20,000 nt of DNA. Origin: an uncultured virus (IMG/VR IMGVR_UViG_3300030110_004015) (taxonomy: Duplodnaviria; Heunggongvirae; Uroviricota; Caudoviricetes; Crassvirales). Location of the stretch: the IMG/VR virus record IMGVR_UViG_3300030110_004015. One strand, written 5' to 3'. The position numbers were made by a program, and so were the translations under genes. Under the pieces are notes generated by a model, which searched no databases, was not told the origin of the DNA, and worked only from the letters and a program-made list of their open reading frames with translations. Positions 3,001 to 18,422 of this stretch are shown piece after piece. Each line of letters starts with the position of its first letter. Within the stretch, counting starts at the first letter, position 1.

Positions 3001-4045
3001 AGCCTCTCCACTTGGTAAGGTTATATTAAATTTTCAAAACGTAACATCACAGTTTAATAGATTAGGTAAAAAAGCTTTTCAAGATATATATAATAGAAGA
3101 ATAACACCTCCTAATAGTACGCAATTACAGAGTGATGTTTCTAATGCCTCTAGAATAGCTTATTACTTTGCAATACAAAACGCTATATTCTATAGTTTAC
3201 AAACAGCGTTGTTTGCCATGATGTTTGATGATGATGAAGAAGATGAAAGATTTTTAAAGAAAAAAGAGAGAATGATAAATGGTAGTATTGACTCTGTATT
3301 GAGAGGTACTGGTGTTATGGGTGCCGTTATATCTACGTTAAAAAATATGGCTATTAAATTTGCAGCGCAAAGAGATGTTAAGTATAATCCAGACGAAAGC
3401 TCTGTGTTAATGGAAATGTTAAATGTTTCTCCAGTTGTAGGTATTAAAGCTAGAAAAATAACTAATGCTGAAAAAACTCTTAACTATAATAAAAAAGTTA
3501 TTAACCACATGGGTGATTTTGATATTGACAACCCACAGTGGTCAGCAGTTACAAATTATGTTGAAGCGTTTACGAATGTTCCTGTTAACAGATTATATAA
3601 TAAAACACAAAACATTAGACAGGCTTTAAATAATCAAAATGAATCTTGGCAAAGAGCTTTAATGTTTTTAGGTTGGAGTCAGTATAATCTTGGTATTGAA
3701 AATGTTAAAATACAAGACGTTAAAGAAGAGATAAAAATAGAAAATAAAAAAGTTAAAGAACAAAAGAAAATTCAAAAGAAATTAGAAAAAGAAAAAGTTA
3801 ACGAAGCGGTAGTTGAAGAAAACAAAAAGAAGAGCGAAAAAGATGGTATTTGTGCTGCTGTAACTAGAAGCGGTAAAAGATGTAAAACAAAAGTAGTTGA
3901 AGGAAAAACTTTTTGTACAGTACATGAAAAAGTAGAAAAAAGCGAAACTGGTGAGAAAAAACAATGTAAAAAAATAAAGTCAGACGGTAAGAGATGTAAA
4001 ATGCAAACTAATTCAAAGTCAGGTTTGTGTTACTATCATGATTAA
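1..4045 (+). CDS. Giant multidomain phage protein, 5'-truncated (probable virion/ejected polyvalent-type protein): HAD phosphatase with inserted zeta-toxin-like P-loop kinase, long helical region, two C-terminal CCCH fingers
   Basis: The frame is open from base 2 (TCT GCT AGT...ATG at 29), so the gene probably starts upstream of the window. HAD motifs: DFDDTL (635), VLTARP (~1463), AK and YFADD (~1628-1642). Walker A GGAGSGKS at 737-760, then NQD, VVVDGTG and ALERNANRKERS. The C-terminus has two C-x9-C-x10-C-x2-H units. Confidence 0.85.
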   Translation, partial: SASAYQGHFMRTGSVNEFANLEDGKTVEEHQQPASDLAKFLFNRLAERRLFGKNGTFKNAVKGYQQGKLLDVDDKKLKLGKEWSYQSDAGEYMYPIFMGTMPIWVRYFNPNVNNNKGGINPNAYKLSNGNTIAEEFGVGVSKNLQTPTVIAEQQDLLYRIFTNQVTQKQATKAINNFANLKIKESVGDQAILDNAIAASRTTGDPKGITVLDFDDTLATTKSGVRARIPNPTGDPKPRRKVIFLAGGAGSGKSNVVSKLGLENQGFKIVNQDISLEWLKKNNGLPENMNDLTKEQKSTLGSLQHQARGIAKRKMMKYQGQGDGVVVDGTGGSLSVMTKLVEQFEADGYDVSMLFVGTSVETALERNANRKERSLLDVIVRKNHEAVQGNKKGFKSIFGNNFMEVSTDKLSQQDPMPKNLVNKMNDFVSGYEKRRLDAEQFASEGADILEQGGEFDFSEFNIVVEGQTAPLFNKAMKLQKKFGSKDMFVLTARPSESAPHIYEFLKANGLNIPLKNITGLANSTPEAKALWMAGKVGEGYNDFYFADDALQNVQAVQNMLDQFDVKSKVQQAKVNFSKTMNDSFNDILQDVTGIESEKRFGATKARKRGASKGKFRFFIPPSHEDFVGLLYNFMGKGEQGNKHRDFFEEALVRPLNRANREYDTARQTIANDYKALNKQFPSIKKKFNKKTPDGDFTFQDAIRVYLWDKHGYSIPGLSKPDQEALVNIVRSDAELKTYADALNIISKRSDYVNPTEGWDSGDIRMDLDDATGRVGRAEYFAEFNENAEVIFSEENLNKIEAAYGKNVRSALEDMLYRIKTGRNRPSGQNAIVNRFMNYLNGSVGSVMFFNMRSALLQQMSMVNYINFADNNIFAAAKAFANQPQYWKDWAFIFNSDMIKQRRGGIRTDVNGNELAQAVSRSRHPMRTLVSKLLELGFLPTQIGDNIAIATGGATYYRNRINKYIKDGMSKKEAEAAAFTDFQNITQSTQQSARPDMVSQQQASPLGKVILNFQNVTSQFNRLGKKAFQDIYNRRITPPNSTQLQSDVSNASRIAYYFAIQNAIFYSLQTALFAMMFDDDEEDERFLKKKERMINGSIDSVLRGTGVMGAVISTLKNMAIKFAAQRDVKYNPDESSVLMEMLNVSPVVGIKARKITNAEKTLNYNKKVINHMGDFDIDNPQWSAVTNYVEAFTNVPVNRLYNKTQNIRQALNNQNESWQRALMFLGWSQYNLGIENVKIQDVKEEIKIENKKVKEQKKIQKKLEKEKVNEAVVEENKKKSEKDGICAAVTRSGKRCKTKVVEGKTFCTVHEKVEKSETGEKKQCKKIKSDGKRCKMQTNSKSGLCYYHD

Positions 4046-4076
4046 AAAACAAAGAAAACAAGTGATTTACAGATAT

Positions 4077-5159
4077 ATGAAGAAATTAATAATTTTACTA
4101 ATGGTAATTGTTACTTCTTGTGCTGCTCCAAAAAAATGTTGCTCACAAGATTTGCAAAAACTTTTAAAGTTTTCTACGTTTTATGCTGCTGTAAACGGTG
4201 GTACTTCCTTGTCTGATATAAAAGTGTTTTCTGTTGACAATGGTTTATCAACACAAACTATTTCAACTCCTTATGATTACAACTTTACAATAGGTTTACG
4301 TAAGATAGCAAGGTTTGGCTATGAAAATAAAGCACAAACATTTTATGATGGCACGGAATCTAATTACAGTGATGCGGCTACTGTCGGTAAAGTTAAAGGA
4401 GTTGAATACTTATTTGAAGTAGATTACAAAAGGCAAGAGGGTATTGACTATATGGATCAACATCATTTTGTACGTTGGAGTTCTGATGATGGTTGTCCTA
4501 GTGGTTTGTGTGTTAATTACTTTGCTTTAAAAGTAGAATATTTACAAGACGGTTTTGCTGATGTAGAGTATTTCGAAGCATCAGAAAGATACAGACATCG
4601 TAAAGGTAAAAATTTATCTTGGAATATAGGGGCTGTTCATAGGTTATCAGAACCATATGGTTATGATCCGTTGGACGAGTGGATGTTATCAAACGGTAAT
4701 TTACACTATACTTATCTAGCAATTCAAGAAGGATATACTGTGAACGTTGCTAATAGTGAATACTTTGATCCTAACGGAGTTTTAGTTGCAACTAGTCCTG
4801 AAGTATGGGAAGCAGTTGTAATTCCAGAGGTGTTATCAGATTATGTTACAAAAAAACGTAATGAATTAGATAGATTAATACAGCACTCAATAGTTATTGG
4901 CTTTGATTACTATAAATATACAAAGAAAAACTGGTTACACGTTTGGGGTAACTTTATGCCTTGGCATTATAACGATGGTAGTGAATTTTCATATCACAAT
5001 TTTATAGAAGATGATCAGTGGTACGATTATTCGGGTGGGCTAATATACGGAATAAAACAAAATAAAAACTTAGGTTATTTTGTAGAAGGAAAATATAATA
5101 AGTACTGGAATCGTGAGTGGTACGATTTTAAAATAGGATTAAATTACACAATTTTTTAA
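4077..5159 (+). CDS. Exported protein, probable outer-membrane beta-barrel (possible lipoprotein signal)
   Basis: ATG 4077 is preferred over 4038 because it gives the signal peptide MKKLIILLMVIVTSC. Tyr/Trp/Phe-rich alternating strands; ends KIGLNYTIF, resembling the C-terminal beta-signal of outer-membrane proteins. Confidence 0.65.
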   Translation: MKKLIILLMVIVTSCAAPKKCCSQDLQKLLKFSTFYAAVNGGTSLSDIKVFSVDNGLSTQTISTPYDYNFTIGLRKIARFGYENKAQTFYDGTESNYSDAATVGKVKGVEYLFEVDYKRQEGIDYMDQHHFVRWSSDDGCPSGLCVNYFALKVEYLQDGFADVEYFEASERYRHRKGKNLSWNIGAVHRLSEPYGYDPLDEWMLSNGNLHYTYLAIQEGYTVNVANSEYFDPNGVLVATSPEVWEAVVIPEVLSDYVTKKRNELDRLIQHSIVIGFDYYKYTKKNWLHVWGNFMPWHYNDGSEFSYHNFIEDDQWYDYSGGLIYGIKQNKNLGYFVEGKYNKYWNREWYDFKIGLNYTIF

Positions 5160-5160
5160 A

Positions 5161-5442
5161 ATGGCAAAAGAATTAAATGAAGATACGGGTTTCGTATTAA
5201 GTATAAAAACAATGATAGGTTTAGGTTTTGCAATAGCAACTTTAATAGGTATGTGGTTTACGCTTCAAGCAGATATTGCTGAAGCTAAAGAGTTGCCATC
5301 TCCACCAGATCCAGAAGTAACTCGTATGGAGTTTGATATGAAAGATCAAATGATTCGTAACACGATTATGGAAACAAAAAAAGATGTTGAGGAAATTAAA
5401 GAAACTCTAGATAAAATAGAAGATAAATTATATAACAGATAA
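5161..5442 (+). CDS. Single-pass membrane protein with Pro linker and C-terminal coiled coil
   Basis: TM segment IKTMIGLGFAIATLIGMWFTL, linker LPSPPDP, heptad-like TKKDVEEIKETLDKIEDKLY. Confidence 0.75.
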   Translation: MAKELNEDTGFVLSIKTMIGLGFAIATLIGMWFTLQADIAEAKELPSPPDPEVTRMEFDMKDQMIRNTIMETKKDVEEIKETLDKIEDKLYNR

Positions 5443-5447
5443 ATTAA

Positions 5448-5801
5448 ATGGAAAGACAAGATATGTCAAAGGTGTTGTATGTGTTGTTAATGATATTAGT
5501 ATTTATGGCATCACAAGCACTTGCACAAATAGAAGTAAAACATTTTAATGCTGGATGGAATAACGTTAACAGCGTTAAATGGTTTATGGATTTAGAAGAT
5601 TGTAAAACCAAAGGAACGACAGATATAGCTAAAAATCCAAAAATAGCTAAAAAATATAAAATAGCAGTTGTGCCTACTATTATTATATTTAAAGACGGAG
5701 AAGAGGTTGCTAGGTTTCAAGCAGATTTATCATTTAAAATGGTAGCAACTAGAGAAGAAGTACAAGAAGAAATAGATAATCAATTAATGAGCGATTTTTA
5801 A
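5448..5801 (+). CDS. Exported thioredoxin-fold protein lacking CxxC
   Basis: Signal peptide (M)SKVLYVLLMILVFMASQALA|Q. HFNAGWNNVN sits where thioredoxin has F-x-A-x-W-C-x-x-C. The C-terminal half YKIAVVPTIIIFKDGEEVARF is classic thioredoxin. The start may be 5463. Confidence 0.8.
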   Translation: MERQDMSKVLYVLLMILVFMASQALAQIEVKHFNAGWNNVNSVKWFMDLEDCKTKGTTDIAKNPKIAKKYKIAVVPTIIIFKDGEEVARFQADLSFKMVATREEVQEEIDNQLMSDF

Positions 5802-5802
5802 T

Positions 5803-6201
5803 ATGGGATATGTAATGAAAGGTTTTGGTGGGTTTGGTAACTCACCAGCTAAGAAAAAAGGACCTTGTTGGAAAGGTTATGAAATGGTAGGTATGAAAAA
5901 GAAAGGTAGTAGAACGGTTCCTAACTGTGTTCCTTCACCTGCTAAAAACAGTAATGAACCTAGAAAAACAACTAAAGGGCCTGGTAGAAATTTTAGGACT
6001 ACAGAAGAAGGAGCGGGTATGACTGCAAAAGGTGTTGCTGCATACAAAAGAAAAAACCCTGGTAGTAAATTACAAACAGCTGTAACTGGTGATGTAAAAC
6101 CTGGTAGTAAAGCAGCTGGTAGAAGAAAATCGTTTTGTGCTAGATCAAAAGGTTGGACTGGCGAAAGAGGTAAAGCCGCAAGAGCAAGATGGAAGTGTTA
6201 A
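5803..6201 (+). CDS. Small highly basic phage protein (PCWKGY...VPNCVP module plus DUF6321-like RRKSFCARS...RWKC domain)
   Basis: Motifs recognised from marine phage hypothetical proteins; Lys/Arg/Gly-rich. The family name is from memory, not a search. Confidence 0.7.
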   Translation: MGYVMKGFGGFGNSPAKKKGPCWKGYEMVGMKKKGSRTVPNCVPSPAKNSNEPRKTTKGPGRNFRTTEEGAGMTAKGVAAYKRKNPGSKLQTAVTGDVKPGSKAAGRRKSFCARSKGWTGERGKAARARWKC

Positions 6202-6716
6202 AAGGTTTTCCTATAAAAAAATATTTAGATAAAAAACCACCTAGTAACAACTCATTTACTACTATGCAAGAGTTAAAGGAGTTAAACAAGGTGCCTATGA
6301 ATAAAAAATTTGTAAGACAAAAAGATGATGTTGAAAAATGTTTTAGCTCTATAGTTGATGATAAGCCTCTTATAAGACAATTAATGGACGAAACAGTTCC
6401 TATTATAACAAAAATAAAACATCATCACAAAAGACCTAGACCTAAAAAACTTGCAAAAAAATACGGTATGAATATGAAAGACATTGAGATGCCATCAATG
6501 AAAACACCTTCATACCCATCAGGACACTCTGCTCAAGGTGTATTAGTTGGCATGGCTTTAAGTAAAAAATTTCCAAGCAAAAAGAAACAACTAATGAGTA
6601 TGGCAAAAGATATTTCTAAAAGTAGAAACGTTGCGCATGCACATTATAAATCTGATTCTGTTCTTGGTGAAAAAATAGGCAAAGACATGTATAATTATAT
6701 AAAAGATAAACTATGA
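6189..6716 (+). CDS. PAP2/haloperoxidase-superfamily soluble phosphatase
   Basis: All three PAP2 motifs: K-x6-RP (KHHHKRPRP), YPSGH, and SR-x5-H-x3-D (SRNVAHAHYKSD). No TM or signal peptide. Start is ATG 6189 or GTG 6195. Confidence 0.88.
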   Translation: MEVLKGFPIKKYLDKKPPSNNSFTTMQELKELNKVPMNKKFVRQKDDVEKCFSSIVDDKPLIRQLMDETVPIITKIKHHHKRPRPKKLAKKYGMNMKDIEMPSMKTPSYPSGHSAQGVLVGMALSKKFPSKKKQLMSMAKDISKSRNVAHAHYKSDSVLGEKIGKDMYNYIKDKL

Positions 6717-9079
6717 AAAAAATTTTACTGTTATTAATGTTACCAATAATAACCTTTGCTCAAAAAGAAATGGTTATTATGGTAAAAACAGATAGCTATC
6801 CTTCTGAAACTAGATGGGTATTGTATGCAGATAGTTTTCAAGGACCAATGATTTCAGAGGTTCAATATGGTCATTATGATTCTGCTAATACAATGAATTA
6901 TGATACATTATTTTTAGCAGATAGTATTACTAATATATCATGGGTTATATATGATTCTTTTGGAGATGGTATTGTTAATGGTGAATATTATGTAACTATA
7001 TGTGAAGATACTATAGTTAATTATCCTGTTTCTACATTTAGCAATGGTTTAATACATAATAGAACTGTGCCTCAATGTATGCCACAGCCTCCACCGTTAC
7101 AAATGGTGCCAGCTAAAGTTATAATAAACTTAGATCAATATCAAAGTGAAACTAGTTGGGATATAAAAGACACAAATGGTATAACGTATGCTTCTGGTAG
7201 TGGTTATAACTCTCAACCTGATTATGCTAGTGTTGTTATACCGGTACAGATACCAAAAGGACAATTAGTATTTACAATATATGATACGTATGGAGATGGT
7301 TTAAACGGTGCGTTATGGCAAGGACAAGATGGTTCTTATTACGTTGTTCAATGTAATGATACGTTAGTGTATGGTACAGATCCTGCTTTTGGAAATGATA
7401 CTTCTCATGTACTTGTATCTGATTCTTGTCCTCCTATACTTGGTTGTACTGATAATGATTATATAGAGTGGAATCCTTTTGCTACAGTAGATGACGGTAG
7501 TTGTCAAACTTTAAAAATATTTGGATGTGTAGATAGTACAATGTACAACTACGATCCTAACGCTAATACAATGGAGTTAATTGACACTTGTGTTTACACT
7601 TTAATATTACATGATTTAATGGGTAATGGTTGGGTTGGTTCACATTTAAAACTTATACACCCTGATACAATGTATCAATTTACTCATACTGGTGGTTTTA
7701 ATGATATATATTATGTGGGATTAACCGCACCAGATCCAATAACGTTTAGATTTCATATATCTGCTCAAGCTAGTTTAACCACTATAGAGTGTGGATTTAC
7801 TCTGATTAATCCAGAAGGAGATACAATGATAAGTATACAACCTCCTTTTATACAACCATTATTACCTTATCAATTAATAACTAATTGTGGTAACACATGT
7901 GAAGAAAAAGTATATGGTTGTTTAGATTCATTAGCTGTTAACTATGATAGTTTAGCAAACACAACTGATAACTCTTGTTATTATACGCCTGGGTGTACAA
8001 ACTCTTCTTATTTAGAATATTATACACAAGGATTTGTAGCTGATTATAATGATGGTAGCTGTGTTACTCCAGCTATATGGGGTTGTATCGACTCAACAGC
8101 ATTTAATTATGACCCAACGGCAAACATAGATAATGGTGGTTGTGTACCAGTTGTTGTAGGTTGTATGATACCAGGGTCTTTTAATTATAACGCACAAGCA
8201 AATACATCCGGACCGTGTATTCCTATTATTTATGGTTGTACTTCTCCTATAGCTTTTAACTATAATCCTCTCGCAAATACAGATGATGGGTCTTGTATAG
8301 GAGTCATATATGGATGTACAGATTCTACAATGTGGAATTATATGCCTAGTGCTAATATAGATGATTCTAGTTGTGTTCCGTACATATTTGGATGTATGGA
8401 TGCAACAATGTGGAATTATAACCCTAGCGCAAACACTGATAACGGATCGTGCATTGCTTTTGCTTATGGTTGTACTGATAGCACAATGTTTAATTACGAT
8501 CCACTAGCAAATACAGATAATGGAAACTGCATACCTTTTATTTATGGTTGTACTGATCCTAGTATGCTTAATTATAACCCGCAGGCTAATACAGAAGATT
8601 TTAGTTGCATTGCTTATATTTATGGTTGTATGGACAGTACTGCTATTAACTATGATACGCTGGCTAATACTGACAATGGTTCGTGTATTGAAGCTATTAT
8701 CGGGTGTATGGATCCGAATGCGTGGAATTATAATCCGTTAGCAAATGTAATCTTAGGACATGATTCGTTAGGATGTTTATACGCGGCAGATTGTTCTGCT
8801 ACAGAGCCTGGTGAGCCTTTCTTTTTAAATGACGAATGTTACGCTTGGGTTATTAGTGTAGATGATTATTGTTGTGAAAACGAATGGGACACGATATGTC
8901 AAGCCACATACGATCATTGTTTTAATGGTTGGACTGGGCCGTTATTAGCAAGAGAAATGCAAAAGAAAATTATAGCTATAACAGATTTGTTAGGAAGACC
9001 AACAAAAGAAATAAAAAATCAACTTCTATTTTACATATACAACGATGGAAGTGTAGTAAGAAAATTAATAAAAGAATAA
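6713..9079 (+). CDS. Secreted Cys-rich repeat protein with T9SS-like C-terminal sorting tail
   Basis: Signal peptide MKKILLLLMLPIITFA|Q; two D-x-Y-x-S-E-T-x-W...IYD-x-[YF]-GDG domains; 13 GCxD...NY...AN.D.GSC repeats; ends KKIIAITDLLGRPTKEIKNQLLFYIYNDGSVVRKLIKE. Confidence 0.82.
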   Translation: MKKILLLLMLPIITFAQKEMVIMVKTDSYPSETRWVLYADSFQGPMISEVQYGHYDSANTMNYDTLFLADSITNISWVIYDSFGDGIVNGEYYVTICEDTIVNYPVSTFSNGLIHNRTVPQCMPQPPPLQMVPAKVIINLDQYQSETSWDIKDTNGITYASGSGYNSQPDYASVVIPVQIPKGQLVFTIYDTYGDGLNGALWQGQDGSYYVVQCNDTLVYGTDPAFGNDTSHVLVSDSCPPILGCTDNDYIEWNPFATVDDGSCQTLKIFGCVDSTMYNYDPNANTMELIDTCVYTLILHDLMGNGWVGSHLKLIHPDTMYQFTHTGGFNDIYYVGLTAPDPITFRFHISAQASLTTIECGFTLINPEGDTMISIQPPFIQPLLPYQLITNCGNTCEEKVYGCLDSLAVNYDSLANTTDNSCYYTPGCTNSSYLEYYTQGFVADYNDGSCVTPAIWGCIDSTAFNYDPTANIDNGGCVPVVVGCMIPGSFNYNAQANTSGPCIPIIYGCTSPIAFNYNPLANTDDGSCIGVIYGCTDSTMWNYMPSANIDDSSCVPYIFGCMDATMWNYNPSANTDNGSCIAFAYGCTDSTMFNYDPLANTDNGNCIPFIYGCTDPSMLNYNPQANTEDFSCIAYIYGCMDSTAINYDTLANTDNGSCIEAIIGCMDPNAWNYNPLANVILGHDSLGCLYAADCSATEPGEPFFLNDECYAWVISVDDYCCENEWDTICQATYDHCFNGWTGPLLAREMQKKIIAITDLLGRPTKEIKNQLLFYIYNDGSVVRKLIKE
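7916..8776 (+). repeat. Intragenic tandem array of 11 degenerate ~26-aa (~78-bp) Cys repeats; 2 more copies at ~7442-7590
   Basis: Consensus GC[TM]DxxAxNY[ND]PxANTD[DN]GSCIxxIY, counted from the translation. Synonymous positions vary, so the repeat is conserved at protein level. Confidence 0.9.
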
Positions 9080-9080
9080 T

Positions 9081-9482
9081 ATGGGTACTTTTCAAAGCAG
9101 AAAAATAACAGAAACATCTCTAGTGGAATCATTAACCGATTGTAATACTGGAGGTGATGATTTTTATAATTCTGGAATAGAGTTTGTTAAGATAGTAAAT
9201 GATCATGCTTCAAATCATTACAAAATAACTCTTACACCACCGAAAACTAGTGTTTCAACAACGATACATGGTTCTTTAACAAAATCAGCGGTAGTTGTTA
9301 CTGTTGAAAATGGTGAAGAAGCTTATCTTGGACCTTTTAAACCTAACATGTGGAATAACGCTAGTGATAAAATATCTTTAGCGTACGCTCACGGTGCTGG
9401 TAGTGGTTCTGCAGAAGACACAGCTATTGGCTCTGGTTCACACCTTTTAAAAGCAGAAGTATTATATCTAGATCCTAAATAA
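9081..9482 (+). CDS. Hypothetical beta-rich protein, possibly structural
   Basis: 133-aa ORF tightly packed in the operon. FVKIVN...VVVTVENGEEAYLGPF weakly echoes the downstream paralogs. Confidence 0.6.
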   Translation: MGTFQSRKITETSLVESLTDCNTGGDDFYNSGIEFVKIVNDHASNHYKITLTPPKTSVSTTIHGSLTKSAVVVTVENGEEAYLGPFKPNMWNNASDKISLAYAHGAGSGSAEDTAIGSGSHLLKAEVLYLDPK

Positions 9483-9499
9483 TAAATAAATAATAAATT

Positions 9500-9907
9500 A
9501 TGGCAACAGTAACAGCAGCAATTACCTTATCTAGTGCGGCAGGTGATTTAATAACAGACGCACTATCACTGTCTGATTCTACAAGTATGACGGTAACAGA
9601 TATGGGAACAACAGGTTTAGCTAGAGCAAAAGTTCAAGCCACAGCGGTTCACGCTACGGCTACAGTATTATATACTGCGGATGATTATGCTGCTGGACCC
9701 CATTTGTATATTAAAAATACAGCGGCATCACCATCTGAATTTATTTGGGTGTACGACGATACTACTTCTGGTGATCCTGTTATATTAAAAATGGCGGGTG
9801 GCGATTGGGCTTTCATGCCTTTAAAAGGTGATAAGACTTTAAAAGCTTATGCACCAAGTGGTAATAATCCATTAATAGAGTGGATAGTTTACGGAACAGA
9901 TCAATAA
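9500..9907 (+). CDS. Small putative structural protein, paralog 1
   Basis: MATVTAAITLSS...LYIKNT...SEFIWV...KMAGGDWAFMPL...IEWIVY, shared with the next two ORFs. Confidence 0.72.
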   Translation: MATVTAAITLSSAAGDLITDALSLSDSTSMTVTDMGTTGLARAKVQATAVHATATVLYTADDYAAGPHLYIKNTAASPSEFIWVYDDTTSGDPVILKMAGGDWAFMPLKGDKTLKAYAPSGNNPLIEWIVYGTDQ

Positions 9908-9938
9908 CAATAAATAATAATAACAAAAATAATTAATT

Positions 9939-10355
9939 ATGCCTACAGCAACACTAACATTAACAAGTGCGGATATAGCCGGTGATCCGGTAAACGTATC
10001 CAAAACGTCTACTTGCTATAAAGCCGGTACGACTACTCCGCTAGATCAAACAGCGGGATTAAATAAAATAATTTTAACAACAACAGATAATAAAGAATTA
10101 TATGTAGCTACAGCAGCTGGAAATGATTTAAATGCTAAGTTATATATATGTAATAAATCTACAGTTCCTTCTGAATTTGTTACTATAACAATAAACGCTC
10201 AAGATATAGGAAAACTATATGCTGGCGCGTGGATGTTTATTCCTTGGAGTCAAACAGATACAGCGGCTCAAATTGAGTGTCAAGCAAGCGTAGCAACTGC
10301 TATGCCGGTTGAGTACATGCTTATGCATGAAGGATACGATTTAATAACTGCATAA
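9939..10355 (+). CDS. Small putative structural protein, paralog 2
   Basis: LYICNKSTVPSEFVTI...IGKLYAGAWMFIPW...SVATAMPVEY. Confidence 0.72.
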   Translation: MPTATLTLTSADIAGDPVNVSKTSTCYKAGTTTPLDQTAGLNKIILTTTDNKELYVATAAGNDLNAKLYICNKSTVPSEFVTITINAQDIGKLYAGAWMFIPWSQTDTAAQIECQASVATAMPVEYMLMHEGYDLITA

Positions 10356-10379
10356 AATAACTTTTAAAAAAATAATAAT

Positions 10380-10808
10380 ATGGCAACAATAACAGCAAAT
10401 ATAGCTTTAAATAATGATGTGGCTTCTTCAGCAATATCTATAGCTCAAGCAATGGATCTTTATAAAGCTGGAGGTACAGAAGGCATGGATACTATGACCT
10501 CCGTAAGTAAAATATTAACTAGCACAGATCATGTTGATTTAATAACAGCAGCATCTGTAAGTGGATCACACCATTATGTTTATATATCTAACCCTTCAAC
10601 AGTGGCTTCAGAATATTTTCATGTAACAATTGGGGACAGCGTTGGTAGTGGTACTTACGACAACGGTACTTTACCTACTGAAGAAATTGGTAGATTATAC
10701 GGTGGTGATTGGATGTTTATTCCTTGGACTGCTGCCGCAGACGAGGATATATGCGTTAAACCTAGTGTAGCAACTAAAATGGTAGTCGAGTACATAGTAT
10801 TTAGCTAA
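10380..10808 (+). CDS. Small putative structural protein, paralog 3
   Basis: VYISNPSTVASEYFHV...IGRLYGGDWMFIPW...SVATKMVVEY. Confidence 0.72.
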   Translation: MATITANIALNNDVASSAISIAQAMDLYKAGGTEGMDTMTSVSKILTSTDHVDLITAASVSGSHHYVYISNPSTVASEYFHVTIGDSVGSGTYDNGTLPTEEIGRLYGGDWMFIPWTAAADEDICVKPSVATKMVVEYIVFS

Positions 10809-11263
10809 TGATAAGCAATCATATTTCTTATCGGGAAGGTGTGTATAGCACAACAGCGAAGCGCCTTGGATTAGATAATACTCCTGATGATGAACAATTA
10901 AATAATATGGAATTAATTGCTCATGAAATATTTGAACCATTAAGAACTTATGTTGGTGGACCTATAAAAATTAATAGTTTTTTTAGATCACCTAAACTTA
11001 ATAAGGCTATTGGTGGATCTAGTAAATCTCAGCATTGTAAAGGTCAAGCTATGGACATAGATGATACGTTTGGTAGAATGACTAATGCTGAAATGTATTA
11101 CTTTATAAAAGATCATTTAGATTTTGACCAGATAATATGGGAGTTTGGAGATGATGATAATCCTGATTGGGTACATGTTAGTTATGTATCGCCTGAAAAA
11201 AATAGGAATAGATGTTTAAAAGCTTATCGAAAAAAAGGTAAAACACAATATAAAATAATATAA
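10808..11263 (+). CDS. Peptidase M15A-family Zn peptidase, probable endolysin
   Basis: INSFFRSPKLNKAIGGSSKSQHCKGQAMDID (SxH-x6-D) and WVHVSY motifs. TAATG overlaps with both neighbours. Confidence 0.9.
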   Translation: MISNHISYREGVYSTTAKRLGLDNTPDDEQLNNMELIAHEIFEPLRTYVGGPIKINSFFRSPKLNKAIGGSSKSQHCKGQAMDIDDTFGRMTNAEMYYFIKDHLDFDQIIWEFGDDDNPDWVHVSYVSPEKNRNRCLKAYRKKGKTQYKII

Positions 11264-12123
11264 TGGAAAAATTTCTTTTATTTTCTACTGGAGCTGGAAA
11301 TGATGATTTACAGAACCTACAAGGTAATGAAGTGGCTTTATATAAGGCCACTGATTTAATTACTATGAGGCCTGGCTCTATAAGAACTATAGATCTTCTT
11401 TTTAAATCAGATGGAGGACATGATATAGTTACGTTAGGAATAAAAGGAGGACAGCATTATAAAGTTTTAAGAGCTATATCTCAAGCAATAGCAACACCAC
11501 TTAATAATAACACGGTTATATCTATAGCTGATATGGATGGTTATAGATTTATAGACCCAAATATATGGTCTGTATCTATTAAGCGTAATTTTATAGATGT
11601 ACAAAAAATTAATACAACAATTCCACATGAAATACCTATTAGTAATATTGCAAGAATAAAATCAGTTTGTATTACTAATACTCATGATAGTTCAGTTGTT
11701 GAAACAGTTGTTATGATAACAGATCAAACTGGTAATGATATAACAGATACAGGTGTAAATGTAAACAATGGTAGTGGTTATGCTGCTACTATTGACTCAA
11801 CAGCTGTAACTGTTGATGGTTCTGTTGCGTTGTCTGCTATTTTTGACAATGAAAGAGTTTACAAATCAGATGGTACTGTATTTGGGCTTTGTTCAGCTAG
11901 AAATAGTAATACACAAATAACTTTTGCTACTGGTTTAGAAAACGCTATGACAGATGATGATGATTTATATACAGGCACAAGATACAAACCTTTTGTTGGT
12001 AGGATATATCCTAGATCAACTTTAGTATTAGATAGTCAAGATATAAACTTTGATATGCATACTTATAAATTATATGTTGAAGCTGGAGCGTCAGATTGTT
12101 TAGAAGTTATAGTACGTTATTAA
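11263..12123 (+). CDS. Hypothetical multidomain protein, probably structural/tail-associated
   Basis: 286-aa ORF coupled to the peptidase gene; Thr/Asp/Gly-rich beta segment (TGVNVNNGSGY...DDDDLY). Confidence 0.6.
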   Translation: MEKFLLFSTGAGNDDLQNLQGNEVALYKATDLITMRPGSIRTIDLLFKSDGGHDIVTLGIKGGQHYKVLRAISQAIATPLNNNTVISIADMDGYRFIDPNIWSVSIKRNFIDVQKINTTIPHEIPISNIARIKSVCITNTHDSSVVETVVMITDQTGNDITDTGVNVNNGSGYAATIDSTAVTVDGSVALSAIFDNERVYKSDGTVFGLCSARNSNTQITFATGLENAMTDDDDLYTGTRYKPFVGRIYPRSTLVLDSQDINFDMHTYKLYVEAGASDCLEVIVRY

Positions 12124-12124
12124 T

Positions 12125-13417
12125 ATGAAATTTTTAGGAAATTATTTTACTGATGTTAGTAGGTTTCGTAACGATGTTTATATAGAAAGTTACGGTCCAG
12201 ATACCGCGGCTGGAACATCATCGCATTTATATGTATATAGTACTAATTCTGAAGGTAATCCTACTATCAGTTTAGGTTCTAACGCAGAAGAAGCTTTTAG
12301 AATACAAGCTGTATATGATACTGAAGCTACAACGTTAGATAAAGTTATAATAAGAACTACAGCGGCTTCAGGAACGGGTGATAAAGGAGCAATGTTTTTT
12401 CAAGTTGATGAGGTGGCTATACTCTCTATTTTAGACGATGGAATAAACCTAGCTACTAGTAGTAATTTTTCTATTGGAAGTGTAGATATAATAGATGATA
12501 ATAGCGGTACAACTACTTTAAAGAATATAGACGCTTTAGATGCTACAACAATATCTACGTTTAATTCAGCATTGACAGCTGGTGATATAACAAGCGTAAC
12601 AGCTGGTACGAATTTAAGTGGAGGAGGTCATACTGGAGATGTCACAATAAATTTAGACACTGCTTCAACCTCCACGTTAGGTGCTGCTAGCTTTAGCAGT
12701 TCTCATTTTGATGTAGATAGTGGTGCTGTAAGTATAAAGGCGGGTGGTATTGGAATAGATAGATTATCTGCTGATGTATTAGTTTTAGAATCAGAAAGAA
12801 TAGCTAACAATGATAATGATGAAACTATACCAACTTGTGCTGCAGTTCAAGATGCAGTTACAAATACAACTTCTGTTGGAACAATAAGCACTGGTACTTG
12901 GCAAGGAACTGCTATAGCTACTGGATACACCAAACATCTTGTGCATTACCGGTTTATAGGTTATGGAACTGGTGATGGTACTAATTACTTTGCGCCACAA
13001 CCATTAAGTGATAATCAAGCCCCATTTGAACATGCTGATTCATCTAGTGCTGATGGTTTGACTATACCTGCTGCATCTGGAACAAACATATCTGAGTTAT
13101 TAAGAGGTGGTGGTCATGTTATGACTACAGCTGTAACATTAAAAAGGTGGACGGGTTGGGCATCTTGTAATGGTAGTGCTGCAACTAAAATTGGTTTATT
13201 TAAATGGACACCTGTAGATAATAACAGTTCTAACGTATCACCTGTATTGTTAGATGAAGCTACTATAACTGCAGCGGGTAACGACAAGGCTAGATCTTTT
13301 GCTGAAACATCTTTTACTCAAGCATCTGTAGCCGCTGGCGATATAATATTTACACAAGTATTTACAGCCGCATCAAAAACAGTATTTTTTAACAGCACAT
13401 TGGAGGTTGAGTTTTAA
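12125..13417 (+). CDS. Tail fibre/receptor-binding-like protein
   Basis: Thr/Ser/Gly/Ala-rich, with fibre-type segments GDITSVTAGTNLSGGG.TGDVTINL, NDNDETIPTCAAV and TSVGTISTGTWQGTAIA. Last gene of the + strand block. Confidence 0.7.
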   Translation: MKFLGNYFTDVSRFRNDVYIESYGPDTAAGTSSHLYVYSTNSEGNPTISLGSNAEEAFRIQAVYDTEATTLDKVIIRTTAASGTGDKGAMFFQVDEVAILSILDDGINLATSSNFSIGSVDIIDDNSGTTTLKNIDALDATTISTFNSALTAGDITSVTAGTNLSGGGHTGDVTINLDTASTSTLGAASFSSSHFDVDSGAVSIKAGGIGIDRLSADVLVLESERIANNDNDETIPTCAAVQDAVTNTTSVGTISTGTWQGTAIATGYTKHLVHYRFIGYGTGDGTNYFAPQPLSDNQAPFEHADSSSADGLTIPAASGTNISELLRGGGHVMTTAVTLKRWTGWASCNGSAATKIGLFKWTPVDNNSSNVSPVLLDEATITAAGNDKARSFAETSFTQASVAAGDIIFTQVFTAASKTVFFNSTLEVEF

Positions 13418-13436
13418 AAACATTTAATAGTAATAT

Positions 13437-13470
13437 AAAAAAAGGGAGCCGTTAAGCTCCCTTTCTTATT
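13437..13470. terminator. Bidirectional intrinsic terminator between the convergent blocks
   Basis: Perfect 9-bp stem AAAGGGAGC (13441-13449) / GCTCCCTTT (13456-13464), loop CGTTAA. An A7 run on the left gives the U-tract for the - strand; TTTCTTATTT follows on the + strand. Confidence 0.9.
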
Positions 13471-13483
13471 TATATATATTTAA

Positions 13484-13723
13484 TTATTTCTTGACACATT
13501 TATCACACAAGAAGAAATACATAATAAATACTAAAGCTACTAGGCCTACAAAGCCAGCTCCAGCTATTCCATTAAGCATTCCCATAAAATTTCCAATAAC
13601 ATCCATTCCGAATATTAATTGTCCTGTTAATAATTGCCATAAAATTGTTACTGGTACTATTGCCATCATAATTCCTACTAATCCAGCGAAAAATCCAGTA
13701 AAATAACTCATTACTTTTTCCAT
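13484..13723 (-). CDS. Small hydrophobic membrane protein (about 2 TM helices)
   Basis: Almost entirely hydrophobic/Gly, with a central GMDVIGN loop and basic C-terminus. A-rich leader; ends just before the terminator. Confidence 0.8.
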   Translation of the reverse strand: MEKVMSYFTGFFAGLVGIMMAIVPVTILWQLLTGQLIFGMDVIGNFMGMLNGIAGAGFVGLVALVFIMYFFLCDKCVKK

Positions 13724-13747
13724 AATTTATTTACTTTTTTGTTAATA

Positions 13748-14167
13748 CTAAAATTTATAAGATACACCTAATCTGAATTCTCCTTCTCTTTCGCCGTTTT
13801 CATCTTCTTTTAAAGACACAACATAGCTAGGATCAACGTATAAACTTCTCCATACATTATAAGAGTATCCAATACCAAGATCTAACTTATCCTTTAATTC
13901 AGCTTCAGAATCTTTTTTGTAGTTATATATACATGTGGCCCAAAGTCCTTCATGTATATCGTAACGACCAAGTAGTTCATACTTGTCTTCTCCATCCATT
14001 GTTGCAGCTACCATAAGTTTTTCGTTAACTTGATAACCAACTCCAATCATGTCTGTAGCATTCCAAGTTGAATCAGTTCCTTCACTAAATGTTGTTAACG
14101 CTACAAACTGTGCAGACGCAAGCATTGTAGAAAAAGCAAACAACATTGTTAAAAATAGTTTGTTCAT
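13748..14167 (-). CDS. Small outer-membrane beta-barrel protein (about 8 strands)
   Basis: True start is probably ATG 14167, giving MNKLFLTMLFAFSTMLASA|QF. Strands IGVGYQVN, LGIGYSYNVW, LYVDPSYVV; terminal FRLGVSYKF beta-signal. Confidence 0.82.
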   Translation of the reverse strand: MNKLFLTMLFAFSTMLASAQFVALTTFSEGTDSTWNATDMIGVGYQVNEKLMVAATMDGEDKYELLGRYDIHEGLWATCIYNYKKDSEAELKDKLDLGIGYSYNVWRSLYVDPSYVVSLKEDENGEREGEFRLGVSYKF

Positions 14168-14181
14168 AATAATTGTTTTGA

Positions 14182-16056
14182 TTAAAGGCTTGTTATTTCG
14201 CAAGATCCACCGGCACAAGCCAATTCGCCTGATAGATCAGTGTTGTCAGTTTCTTCCATAACATCTTCTAAATTTATATTGTGTAGTTTAGAAACCAACT
14301 TATCAAACTCTTTTTTAGTTATATCTTCAAAAGGAGCTTGAGTGTATGTTCCACCGTCATAAGGTAGAACGGATAGACCGTTGTAACAGTCTCTATTATC
14401 CCACATCCATTTACCAGCTTTATTCCATTCATCTTCTTTTAAACTAATTGTTGCGGACACGTTGTGGGTGTTAGATCCTTTTCTATGACCTGGTTTAACC
14501 CATTCGGTAGCAACTTTTTTAACTCTTTTAAGTAAGTCAAAAGCAGACTCAGTTCTTAATATAGAACCTTTTGGAGCTGACTGTGGTATTTCTATCACAG
14601 CAGTATCGTGTGGTCTAAAATATTCATCTTCCACTAATTGTGGGTGATTTTGTTTTAAATAATTATATATAGATTCGTTTTTACCTACACGTAATCTACG
14701 TATATAATAATCATTGTGCCAAGCATGTATACCAGAGCTTGTTCCTAAAACTAAAGATGTAGTACCAGCGGGTTTAATACAAGTTGTTCTAGCCGCTTTG
14801 TTTATCCCTATTAGTTTTGCTACTCTTGTGTTTTCTCTTTTCACTGTACTTGCAGCGGCCTTCATATCCAGCGGGAGCACAGCGGCACTCGCGATTCCTG
14901 TCATTGACACACCTATAAGCGCGTCTTTCTCTGTTGTTTCTTGCCATATTTCTCTTAGATAGTGGAATTCCGTATAACCTGCTTGAAGCGTACCAATGAA
15001 GGCGGCAGCTTTAACGCGGGCGTTAAGGTCTTCTTGGTTTGTGACGTCACTTACATTAACTTCGCACAAGTTACAGAACTGATAGGGACGCAAGGCAATC
15101 TCACAACAAGGATTAGTTCCCCAATCTTTATCATGATTAAAGTAGATGCCAGGTTCTCCAGCTCCGGATAATTCAATACGTTTCCACAAATCTAAGAAAA
15201 ACTCTTTAGTAATTTTATGTCTCATTAAAACAGCGGAGTTATTAGCTCTACCACGCTGTGGATTTTCTTCCCACCAACTTCCTGATTTACATGAAATCAT
15301 TTCTTCATCATAAGCTGAAAATAAACTTATTAATGCCGCTCGTCTGATTCCACCAGCGAGTACAGCGTCAGCAATATGACACACAATATCATGGACTTCA
15401 AGAGTAGTAAGCTGTGTTCCATTTTCTTTGTTTTCTAGTATTCCTTTTATTTTTAATAAACATTCTTTTAATGGTTGTGGACCTGGAGCTTTACCGCCTG
15501 AGGTCACAAGCCTTGCTCCCTTTGGTCTAATATCAGAATAATCAAATTTGATCTTAGATGATCTCTTAGAGCCTAAATAAGACTTGATTAAAACCTTTAC
15601 AGCATCAGACCAACCTTCAATTGAATCACCAATAACAAATCTTCTAGTTCGTCCTTCAAATGGTTTTGCTATACATGGTAATTGTTTTACGTGGTGCTGT
15701 TGTACACTATAACCAACACCGCAGCCAGAAAGCAATAAAAACATACACTCGCTAAAACTATCAGTATGATCAATAGGCAAGTAGCTGCAATTATAAAGCC
15801 TATTAGGCGAAATTTCAATTGGCTTCCCGCTAAATTGAAGGGATCGCATAGACGGTAAAACTTTTTTCTTATAGACATATCTGTATGTTTCTTCAATTTG
15901 ATTATATAATTCTGGATATCTTTTTTGGTGCATTTCTTTGTTTCTCGTGACTAGTTCCTCCCAAGTTTCTCTTCTATTTAACTCAGGTATAAACTTAGCA
16001 TACTTCATGTAGACTGTTAAGTCTGAAAGTATTTTTTTATTTACATCACTTTGCAT
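14182..16056 (-). CDS. nrdJ: Class II (adenosylcobalamin-dependent) ribonucleotide reductase
   Basis: RRETWEELV.R, VLPSMRSLQ, LYNCSY, GCGVGYSV, GGIRRAALISL, catalytic TNPCCEI, KPAGTTS and C-terminal CAGGSCEI. No small-subunit gene nearby. Start reassigned to ATG 16056 (624 aa) because the upstream extension is occupied by another ORF. Confidence 0.93.
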   Translation of the reverse strand: MQSDVNKKILSDLTVYMKYAKFIPELNRRETWEELVTRNKEMHQKRYPELYNQIEETYRYVYKKKVLPSMRSLQFSGKPIEISPNRLYNCSYLPIDHTDSFSECMFLLLSGCGVGYSVQQHHVKQLPCIAKPFEGRTRRFVIGDSIEGWSDAVKVLIKSYLGSKRSSKIKFDYSDIRPKGARLVTSGGKAPGPQPLKECLLKIKGILENKENGTQLTTLEVHDIVCHIADAVLAGGIRRAALISLFSAYDEEMISCKSGSWWEENPQRGRANNSAVLMRHKITKEFFLDLWKRIELSGAGEPGIYFNHDKDWGTNPCCEIALRPYQFCNLCEVNVSDVTNQEDLNARVKAAAFIGTLQAGYTEFHYLREIWQETTEKDALIGVSMTGIASAAVLPLDMKAAASTVKRENTRVAKLIGINKAARTTCIKPAGTTSLVLGTSSGIHAWHNDYYIRRLRVGKNESIYNYLKQNHPQLVEDEYFRPHDTAVIEIPQSAPKGSILRTESAFDLLKRVKKVATEWVKPGHRKGSNTHNVSATISLKEDEWNKAGKWMWDNRDCYNGLSVLPYDGGTYTQAPFEDITKKEFDKLVSKLHNINLEDVMEETDNTDLSGELACAGGSCEITSL

Positions 16057-17760: not shown

Positions 17761-18422
17761 AATAAGCCTAGTTTATCGTTATATATATGTAAGTTATGTG
17801 CAAAGTGATAATAACTACCTATATCCATTTTTATTTCTTTAGCTACAAGTTCTTGTAACTTAGAAAATTGATATTGATCGTTACAAAAACCATACCACAA
17901 ATCATTACTACGCATTGTTACACACATGTTTAATCTATTATCTACTATAGTAAATTGAACAGCATACGTACAAGGTGTGTCATACGTATATTTATCTATC
18001 TCTTTACCGTCATATATAGATATAGTAGCTTGCCTAGTATATTTTTCACGTTTTAATAAACTAATAATTTTATCTAATTGTTTATTACGTTGCCATTGAT
18101 AACCATAATTAGAATTAACANNNNNNNNNNCGTCACCATCAGCCATACGTTTCCATATTTCAGGAACTTTACCATATATCTCACCTATTTTAGATATATT
18201 TCTATCACCAGATAAATACCATTGCCATTCGGCTTCGGCATATTCTTTGCTCCACTTACGATTAAAAATGGTTATATCATTTAGCGTTGGTTTGTGTATA
18301 GCAAAACCAATATTAAACAAAGCTTTGGTATCAGCAAAGTCCGCACCGTGTTTACTTATAGTTTTGTAAAAATATTCAAATGCTTCATTAGCATTATAAA
18401 AATCAGTTTCTATATTTGTCAT
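17757..18422 (-). CDS. Thymidylate-synthase-superfamily enzyme, dCMP hydroxymethylase/methylase-like
   Basis: NSNYG, catalytic PC, MRSNDLWYGFCND and NLHIY motifs. Asp at the position of E. coli ThyA Asn177. Spans a 10-N gap. Confidence 0.85.
   Translation of the reverse strand: MTNIETDFYNANEAFEYFYKTISKHGADFADTKALFNIGFAIHKPTLNDITIFNRKWSKEYAEAEWQWYLSGDRNISKIGEIYGKVPEIWKRMADGDXXXXVNSNYGYQWQRNKQLDKIISLLKREKYTRQATISIYDGKEIDKYTYDTPCTYAVQFTIVDNRLNMCVTMRSNDLWYGFCNDQYQFSKLQELVAKEIKMDIGSYYHFAHNLHIYNDKLGLL
18121..18130. other. Assembly/scaffold gap (10 N)
   Basis: Literal Ns in the sequence; true length unknown. Confidence 1.

Follow-up and report, generated by a model that had tools for sequence, protein, structure and literature searches.

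Among phages of Gram-negative hosts, the survey of Kongari (2018) found no spanin in 91 of 677 (PMC6139136), and Bacteroidetes phages are reported, in the part of the source available to us, with unimolecular spanins only (PMC12596118). Here we consider a 20,000-nucleotide stretch of an uncultured virus (IMG/VR record IMGVR_UViG_3300030110_004015), referred to below as the window, which carries three separate groups of exported proteins. Our main subject is the first of these, a trio of genes (g02, g03 and g04) predicted to encode an outer-membrane (OM) barrel, an inner-membrane helical protein and a periplasmic thioredoxin fold; the others are a Cys-rich secreted protein (g07) and a second, smaller barrel paired with a membrane protein (g16 and g15). 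A first-pass annotation, made from the sequence alone, had taken all six proteins as a single set for remodelling the host envelope. We tentatively favour a different role for the trio, that of a spanin-like step of lysis at which the OM is breached, and hold this to be quite possible although still short of probable.

When the trio is set beside two-component spanins such as lambda Rz/Rz1, as they are described in the available portion of the spanin survey (PMC6139136), there are likenesses in both topology and context. g03 is predicted to have an N-terminal transmembrane (TM) segment followed by a periplasmic helical part, and its potential OM partner, g02, carries a lipobox in the window. 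The three genes are tightly adjacent, they sit within an endolysin/holin cassette in many loci of other lineages, and no other spanin is identifiable. In contrast, where o-spanins are lipoproteins of some 40-60 aa, g02 is a predicted 12-stranded barrel of 360 aa which, despite its lipobox, falls outside the definition of an o-spanin as a small OM lipoprotein with a short mature part. The lipobox is also not general in the g02 family: in a 31-member alignment read by eye, 16 members carry a Q-type signal-peptidase-I signal and 7 a Cys-type signal, with 5 unclear and 3 truncated at the N-terminus, and a strict regular expression recovered 13 Q-type and 5 Cys-type signals. The trio further differs from spanins in its third, thioredoxin-fold component, in a much shorter periplasmic helix and in the lack of sequence similarity.

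Other described systems resemble the window in single components. TraF and TrbC of F-type conjugation are periplasmic thioredoxin-like parts of an envelope-spanning machine that are without CxxC, and g04 is likewise a predicted periplasmic thioredoxin fold without redox cysteines; its weak match to TIGR02742 (E 0.0028) is far under the cut-off, however, at 17.5 against 66.45 bits, the two contexts have nothing in common, and we do not assign g04 to this group. Lambda Lom is a small phage-borne OM barrel of the OmpX/Ail kind, and g16 is like such barrels in its signal peptide and in its modelled eight-stranded OM barrel of some 120 mature residues, whereas it is unlike them in always being paired with a two-TM protein of 75-79 aa and in belonging to an apparently lytic phage. 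The secreted g07 can be compared with the type-A T9SS (type IX secretion system) cargo described for 'Cryophage' (Bellas et al. 2020, PMC7468147, available to us in part), since it is a phage-encoded, variable, surface-type protein with a signal peptide from a T9SS-bearing host phylum, but it is without a detectable sorting domain and its conserved tail spans about 40 aa rather than 70-90 aa. Phage genes of Porphyromonas gingivalis with Gln-exposing signals have been read as adapted to the Sec pathway, with potential for OM modification (Matrishin et al. 2023, PMC10367356). The window likewise encodes exported phage proteins that expose Gln on cleavage, although the P. gingivalis proteins are different ones, from temperate phages of an oral host, and the available part of that report mentions no such trio (PMC10367356). 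A full-text literature search returned no description of a phage barrel/coiled-coil/thioredoxin set, in keeping with the first-pass statement that no described system of this composition was known.

Predicted structure and distribution of the trio

Export signals were called by a heuristic scan of all 23 predicted proteins, which looked for an N-terminal K/R, a hydrophobic h-region and a small-x-small site, and from which cleavage was predicted. Just four proteins carry a signal peptide, and these are exactly the four, starting at 4077(+), 5448(+), 6713(+) and 14167(-), which had been proposed earlier as Sec-type. Cleavage is predicted between VTS and C, a lipobox, in the first of these (g02), and between ALA and Q, TFA and Q, and ASA and Q in the others, so that g04, g07 and g16 have Gln at position +1 after a predicted signal peptidase I site; the expectation of at least three such proteins is thus borne out at three of four. 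The two further membrane proteins that had been recognised start at 5161(+), with one TM segment (residues 11-29), and at 13723(-), with two (10-28 and 53-71). Taken together, the signals point to the inner membrane, the periplasm and the OM, as the idea of products addressed to several envelope layers had implied. Gln after signal cleavage is the Q-rule of Bacteroidota (PMC5837995, seen in part), and the pattern therefore fits a Bacteroidota host; this reading of the Gln pattern, made at first sight of the sequence, agrees with the Flavobacteriia host deduced from terminase relatives (see below).

The AlphaFold2 model of g02, built on the family alignment (pLDDT 75.2, pTM 0.71), predicts a 12-stranded OM barrel whose best structural matches are Tsx (Z 15.1), KdgM (14.1), EstA (13.9), NanC (13.5) and NalP (13.0). 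A Foldseek search with this model gave 118 matches at E<=1e-3, and the top 50 listed were all OM barrels. The C-terminus (...NYTIF) resembles the beta-signal of outer-membrane proteins (OMPs), and for both g02 and g16 a predicted signal peptide goes together with a modelled barrel that is closed and antiparallel and with an aromatic beta-signal at the C-terminus; modelling therefore agrees with the two OM barrels first proposed, giving 12 strands for the protein starting at 4077 and eight for that starting at 14167. None of the 31 family members matches any OMP model of Pfam, and g02 falls in no Pfam or PHROG family. Residues 77-107 are the most conserved and yet the least confidently modelled segment of the barrel. 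The barrel family comprises 3636 relatives among 4744 candidates and resolves into 311 representative clusters (50% identity, E<=1e-3), of which a distant representative, P0356, yielded no viral locus.

Behind its TM segment, g03 has a Pro-rich spacer and then some 45 aa of predicted helix, in which the motif TRMEFxMKDQxxR is conserved; its profile gave insignificant matches to coiled-coil chains of the PDB (E 0.4-0.9). The periplasmic thioredoxin fold that had been assigned to g04 passes the PF00085 cut-off (24.2 against 23.5 bits), though NxxN replaces CxxC, and the family profile matches 187 thioredoxin-type PDB sequences at E<=0.01, the best at 5.6e-10. W-N-x-x-N stands in place of CxxC in all 27 aligned relatives, with W37, N38 and N41 invariant, and the column of the post-signal Gln is invariant in the same 27. 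As predicted from its sequence, g04 is a redox-dead periplasmic thioredoxin fold. The genes for g03 and g04 are always adjacent or overlapping. At one locus (L243:5294-8653) this gene pair is duplicated and flanks the barrel, followed by an M15 endolysin and a 129-aa lipoprotein.

Loci were compared for three lineages of the barrel: lineage A, the window's own, for which 80 viral loci were kept of 159 matches; lineage B, of the P0258 type, where confirmation succeeded for 96 of 98 stretches and 80 were retained; and lineage C, of the P0281 type, where it succeeded for 222 of 234 and again 80 were retained. The barrels of the latter two are 33% and about 30% identical to that of the window. By tblastn, the 80 lineage-A loci contain g02 in 80 cases, g03 in 73, g04 in 72, g07 in 56, g12 in 27, g16 in 21 and g15 in 10, counts that have to be read in the light of the many loci ending shortly downstream of the trio. 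Across these relatives the trio is some 80% identical and g01 and g07 some 55%, and in two marine runs the summed contig depth is 700-1700 for the trio, the endolysin and the ribonucleotide reductase (RNR) gene against 5-16 for the fibre genes. This contrast in depth and identity therefore indicates that the trio is common to many co-occurring phages and that the stretch running from g07 to the fibre genes differs from strain to strain. The trio is complete in 65/80 lineage-B and 74/80 lineage-C loci, in phages with differing portals and terminases and with genomes of 28-167 kb, and is thus kept across three lineages with unrelated structural genes. The single set of the first-pass annotation does not survive this comparison, since the trio, g07 and the g15-g16 pair are inherited as three separate modules.

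Judged by these sequence comparisons, the trio is phage-only and widespread. A scan of genome contigs for the barrel, with one pattern, gave 12 matches, all 12 on contigs of metagenome-assembled genomes (MAGs) of mixed taxa (labelled Parvibaculum, Maricaulis, Rickettsiales, Nitrosopelagicus, Woesearchaeota, Pelagibacter and, in four cases, Bacteroidota). We read all of these as mis-binned phage DNA and reject the idea that the barrel came from a host or a prophage. That the contig might itself be a chimera with host DNA, which had been raised as grounds for doubt, is ruled out by the recurrence of the same gene order in 80 viral loci.

Linkage to lysis genes and the possible role of the trio

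We assessed linkage in loci with at least 1.5 kb on each side of the trio, using three lysin types as probes, so that the counts of lysin linkage are lower bounds. At a distance of no more than 1.5 kb from the trio, 32/52 evaluable loci of lineage B and 32/59 of lineage C (64/111 together) have a recognised endolysin. These endolysins are of three unrelated types: M15 in 32 loci (23 in lineage B and 9 in C), a phrog_3000/33083 type in 24 (9 and 15) and PG_binding_1+Amidase_2 in 8. The M15 gene starts no more than 100 nt after the thioredoxin-like gene in all 27 lineage-B loci that have both. Holins or small TM genes are found within the same distance of the trio in 41/52 lineage-B and 25/59 lineage-C loci, and in several loci a holin follows (PHROG 3427, Phage_holin_4_1 or a TM protein of 70-84 aa). 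These neighbours were annotated with PHROGs and Pfam (phrog_894 at 1e-29 to 1e-35, the holin phrog_3427 at up to 1e-30; PG_binding_1+Amidase_2 followed by Phage_holin_4_1). As a clue to function, nothing is stronger than this replacement of one endolysin family by another beside a trio that stays the same.

The window's trio is separated from the endolysin g12, which is encoded on the same strand, by 5.0 kb that hold the variable genes, and the window has no homologue of PHROG 3427, of holin_4_1 or of the small TM proteins. Among open reading frames of at least 25 aa on both strands, g02 is the only one with a signal and a lipobox, a 26-aa out-of-frame reading frame inside g02 with the same two features having been judged spurious; no small lipoprotein fit to act as an o- or u-spanin is thus encoded, and no window protein matches a spanin PHROG. 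The earlier view that the exported proteins go beyond the needs of lysis is therefore doubtful, as the trio abuts endolysin and holin genes in two other lineages and the window is otherwise without a spanin candidate. Two observations from lineage B may be recorded alongside. One locus (L093:7047-7238) has, directly after the barrel, a 63-aa proline-rich, o-spanin-like lipoprotein with the lipobox LCSGC, and some trio phages could thus also retain a classical OM lipoprotein. A DUF5675/phrog_1501 protein lies near the barrel in 28/80 loci (for example L118:5166-5645, L082:5210-5707 and L096:10843-11313).

The reading of the trio as a lysis step is supported by its topology, which follows the logic of spanins in pairing an inner-membrane TM segment and periplasmic helix with an OM partner that has a lipobox. 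If so, the three proteins would accumulate in the envelope during late expression, with the helix of g03 reaching the g02 barrel either directly or by way of the thioredoxin-like g04, and together they would form a periplasm-spanning assembly restrained by peptidoglycan. Once the endolysin g12 had removed the peptidoglycan, this assembly would destabilise or open the OM. Mutual contact of the three proteins, their timing and their membrane-breaking activity are what we infer in this scheme, and the TRMEFxMKDQxxR helix of g03 and residues 77-107 of g02 could be the contact surfaces. A more specific version, in which a three-part machine not homologous to spanins (a BAM-inserted 12-stranded barrel, an inner-membrane coiled-coil tether and a redox-dead thioredoxin adaptor) breaches the OM in marine Bacteroidota phages, perhaps assisted by g16-g15, is a possibility that we put forward with some doubt.

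Several points weigh against a role of the trio in breaching the OM. We know of no spanin with a BAM-dependent barrel or a thioredoxin fold, no sequence similarity of the trio to any spanin family was found, and the periplasmic part of g03, at about 60 aa, is short for an i-spanin. The flanks of lysis cassettes are also favoured by accessory genes, lambda bor being an example. In lineage A itself, a lysin lies within 1.5 kb of the trio in just 1/56 evaluable loci, with a median gap of 6.3 kb, and the window's trio is placed directly 3' of a giant gene of the structural operon rather than of a lysin; in lineages B and C, 47/111 evaluable loci are without a recognised lysin nearby, among the three types probed. 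A search of INPHARED for the barrel lineages revealed no cultured carrier, and so there is no phenotype on record: megablast of positions 4000-14300 and tblastn of g02 found no cultured relative, tblastn with a second barrel lineage gave no match, and the thioredoxin-like protein retrieved generic thioredoxins only.

An alternative that stays close to the first-pass annotation is that these proteins remodel the host envelope apart from lysis, by superinfection exclusion, by receptor masking or by protecting progeny from adsorbing to debris. Every product is exported, the lineage-A trio and g07 lie in the structural/tail-fibre region and not beside the lysin, and phage OM proteins in roles of this type are familiar from lambda Lom and Bor and from T5 Llp, the first of which g16 recalls through a weak match to the Lom PHROG (PHROG 108, E 6e-4). 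The g16-g15 genes are also co-oriented with those for RNR, MazG, thymidylate synthase and primase-helicase and share a terminator with them, so that they may be expressed early. We nevertheless think such remodelling unlikely, since genes for exclusion or masking are usually sporadic and co-vary with receptor-binding proteins, whereas the trio is the most conserved block of its region and has been retained by three phage lineages whose structural genes are unrelated. Further, a tyrosine integrase was not found in any of three complete relatives (71-95 kb), and the 12 proteins searched matched no PADLOC family.

It is also conceivable, though we rate it as distinctly unlikely, that g02 serves as an OM export or anchoring partner for secreted proteins with a short conserved tail, much as split autotransporters, two-partner systems or PorP/SprF-like adaptors of the T9SS do. 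Lineage B has a distinct, smaller Cys-rich signal-peptide protein in 76/80 loci, directly after the barrel in 10/10 of those inspected, and the tails of this protein and of g07, some 30-40 aa long, are alike (..LLG(R/Q)..., G.(V/Y)..K.I.K), even though BLASTP found no significant similarity between the two (best E 0.077). The structural neighbours of g02 include the translocators of autotransporters, namely AaaA (Z 12.5), AIDA-I (11.1), Hbp (10.1) and BrkA (10.0) in addition to EstA and NalP, and the named ESM-Atlas clusters nearest to the g07 tail carry PF18962 (0.80-0.81, under the 0.9 threshold and a lead only). Set against this, a structural likeness to barrels of 12 strands is of a general kind, none of the 31 members of the barrel family matches PorP_SprF or another Pfam model, and lineage C has no g07-like protein beside the barrel in the 11 loci inspected, 4 of which have a lipoprotein after it instead; the always-paired genes for the TM-coiled-coil and thioredoxin-like proteins and the adjacency to endolysins would moreover be left unexplained. 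Adjacency to the lysis cassette would equally suit a control of lysis timing, in which the thioredoxin-like and TM proteins act as an antiholin or holin-regulator pair, comparable with T4 RI acting on holin T, and the barrel acts as a sensor. The constant adjacency or overlap of g03 and g04 suggests a stoichiometric pair, and several cassettes have separate canonical holins. This we consider very improbable: the pair resembles neither RI/RIII nor any antiholin family, we know of no role for an OM barrel in lysis inhibition, and the window's lineage would still be left without an OM step.

The remaining modules, host and genomic context

The coordinates of the trio and of the other features of the window are given in Table 1.

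Table 1. Positions and predicted properties of features in the window.
Feature	Position	Strand	Description
g01	2-4045	+	3' 4 kb of a giant gene; AAA_33/Zeta_toxin-type kinase matches
g02	4077..5159	+	360 aa; predicted 12-stranded OM beta-barrel with lipoprotein-type signal
g03	5161..5442	+	93 aa; predicted inner-membrane protein; start 1 nt past g02 stop codon
g04	5448..5801	+	117 aa; predicted signal-peptide thioredoxin-fold protein
DUF6321 protein	5803-6201	+	132 aa, basic
PAP2 phosphatase	6189-6716	+	175 aa; PF01569, 8.9e-9; in 31/80 related loci
g07	6713..9079	+	788 aa; predicted signal-peptide protein with 39 Cys
Four small proteins	9081-10808	+	Three clear paralogues
g12 endolysin	10808-11263	+	Peptidase_M15_3; PHROG 894, 4e-30
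Two fibre-like proteins	11263-13417	+	Relatives have PHROG tail-fibre matches at the same position
Terminator-like hairpin	13441-13464	+	In the gap where the + structural/lysis operon and the - replication-side operon converge
g15	13484..13723	-	79 aa; predicted two-TM protein
g16	13748..14167	-	139 aa; predicted 8-stranded OM barrel, OmpA-TM/OmpX/Ail/Lom-like; C-terminus ..SYKF

The secreted protein g07 begins with a heuristically called Sec signal peptide, MKKILLLLMLPIITFA, which precedes the Gln, and its relatives retain a signal. It contains at least seven repeats of GCxDxxxxNYxxxANxDxxxC, a Cys-rich C-terminal module and the conserved tail (..ITDLLGRP..YIYxDGxVxRKLIK), and its relatives differ in length, some having an N-terminal MAM domain. 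No PDB sequence matches it at E<=1. The label of T9SS-like cargo, which g07 had been given at first, failed every test with family models: the last 259 aa of g07 and three relatives contain no PF18962 at a Pfam E<=0.1, g07 has no TIGR04183 in NCBIfam at E<=1, and its homologues in five related phage records match neither model. As a positive control, four Bacteroidota MAGs each yielded 12-46 domains with the PF18962 model, which also detects a genuine phage T9SS cargo at 36 bits; this last protein (L219:2504-3241) joins a Cohesin domain to a Por_Secre_tail (cut-off 27 bits) on a 167-kb viral contig, 3 kb upstream of that contig's trio.

What does resemble a sorting domain in g07 is a motif of 16 residues. 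When 31 g07 tails were aligned by hhalign with 28 genuine sorting domains, IxITDLLGR fell on template columns 32-47, over 16 columns and with a probability of just 5-8%. Two motifs of sorting domains are reported as essential in the portion of PMC11285876 available to us, and the D-L-L-G-R stretch and the terminal K-L-I-K of g07 line up with both. The tail could thus conceivably be a minimised T9SS signal. We regard g07 itself as a Cys-repeat protein, variable and probably secreted, whose gene belongs to the hypervariable portion of the genome devoted to host interaction.

The model of g16 (pLDDT 80.5) has eight strands, and its nearest matches are the OmpA TM domain, OprF, NspA, Ail and OmpX. 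Its Pfam match is below the cut-off (20.2 against 28.7 bits), as is that to the Lom PHROG, and S-A-Q is invariant in 18/18 of its relatives. There are 2360 relatives, all of them metagenomic among the 120 listed. The g16-g15 genes stand at the end of the operon opposite to that of the trio and are adjacent in every locus with both (10/10 in lineage A and 5/5 in lineage C), and a 164-kb phage (L226) has a g15 copy that is 59% identical. Because g15 is the only small multi-TM protein of the window, we regard it as a possible candidate for the holin.

The window has a GC content of about 0.33 and its 23 predicted proteins are arranged in two convergent gene blocks. Matches to the terminase of a complete relative comprise 87 records with identity of up to 63%, of which 86 are cultured phages (68 of Flavobacterium, 15 of Cellulophaga, 2 of Tenacibaculum and 1 of Maribacter) and one is uncultured. 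As these terminase relatives infect Flavobacteriia, we read the host as a member of that class, and the window as probably belonging to an uncultured, lytic marine phage of Flavobacteriia. A scan for sigma-70 promoters returned 55 sites against 54.7 in shuffled sequence, which is no excess, and Rfam gave no match in the window. The contigs from public reads were short, and two joints in them that resemble the arrangements of relatives, 11244->13430 (side 20) and 5699->10834 (side 28), were not relied on, their sides being under 30 at 90% likeness and joints of this kind often stemming from other organisms.

Directly 5' of the trio, the giant g01-type protein, which in full length comprises 2540-2820 aa in relatives (L017:1503-9965, L021:2345-9967), contains a HAD-like DxDxT motif along with two Cys/His clusters at its C-terminal end; the PHROG search gave it no function. 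The 2740-aa giant reading frame of one relative (L081) includes a Por_Secre_tail-like stretch (G002:C1:24577-24768) of 20.6 bits, below the cut-off. The DUF6321 protein that follows the trio matches PHROG families that are far longer than itself, and these solely at their C-terminal ends (phrog_10346, 413-525 of 525), and its depth in the marine runs is as high as that of the trio. All the catalytic motifs of the PAP2 protein are readable (KxxxxxxRP, PSGH and SRxxxxxHxxxD). This family normally acts in or beyond the membrane, and it is odd that the heuristic scan gave neither a signal peptide nor a TM segment for the window copy, which may act on host envelope lipids from the cytoplasmic side or be carried in the virion. 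The tandem paralogues at 9500-10808, to which the protein at 9081-9482 may also belong, have 135-142 aa and the N-terminus MATxTAxxTL and match no family of Pfam or PHROG; related copies lie directly 3' of the thioredoxin-like gene in three lineage-B loci (L102, L107 and L096). The - strand block encodes a primase-helicase, thymidylate synthase, MazG, a DUF1064 protein and a class II RNR, followed by g16 and g15, and a run of 10 N interrupts the thymidylate synthase gene (PF00303, 1.5e-24) at 18121-18130.

Implications for lysis of Bacteroidota hosts

The way in which Bacteroidota phages exit through the OM is poorly understood, and surveys find few or no spanins in them. The trio is a concrete candidate for this step, and we consider it a credible spanin substitute that is undescribed, very widespread and phage-only. 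Its proteins are without family annotation and yet occur in thousands of ocean phage sequences, in cassettes with three unrelated types of endolysin. Should the trio instead remodel the cell surface, it would represent an unusually widespread reprogramming of the host envelope by lytic phages. If the three-part machine proposed above is real, then it would constitute a new class of phage lysis system, one that fills the gap left by the failure to find spanins for a whole host phylum. In algal blooms, Flavobacteriia play a major part in breaking down carbon, and the manner of their lysis by phages bears on the release of carbon in the sea.

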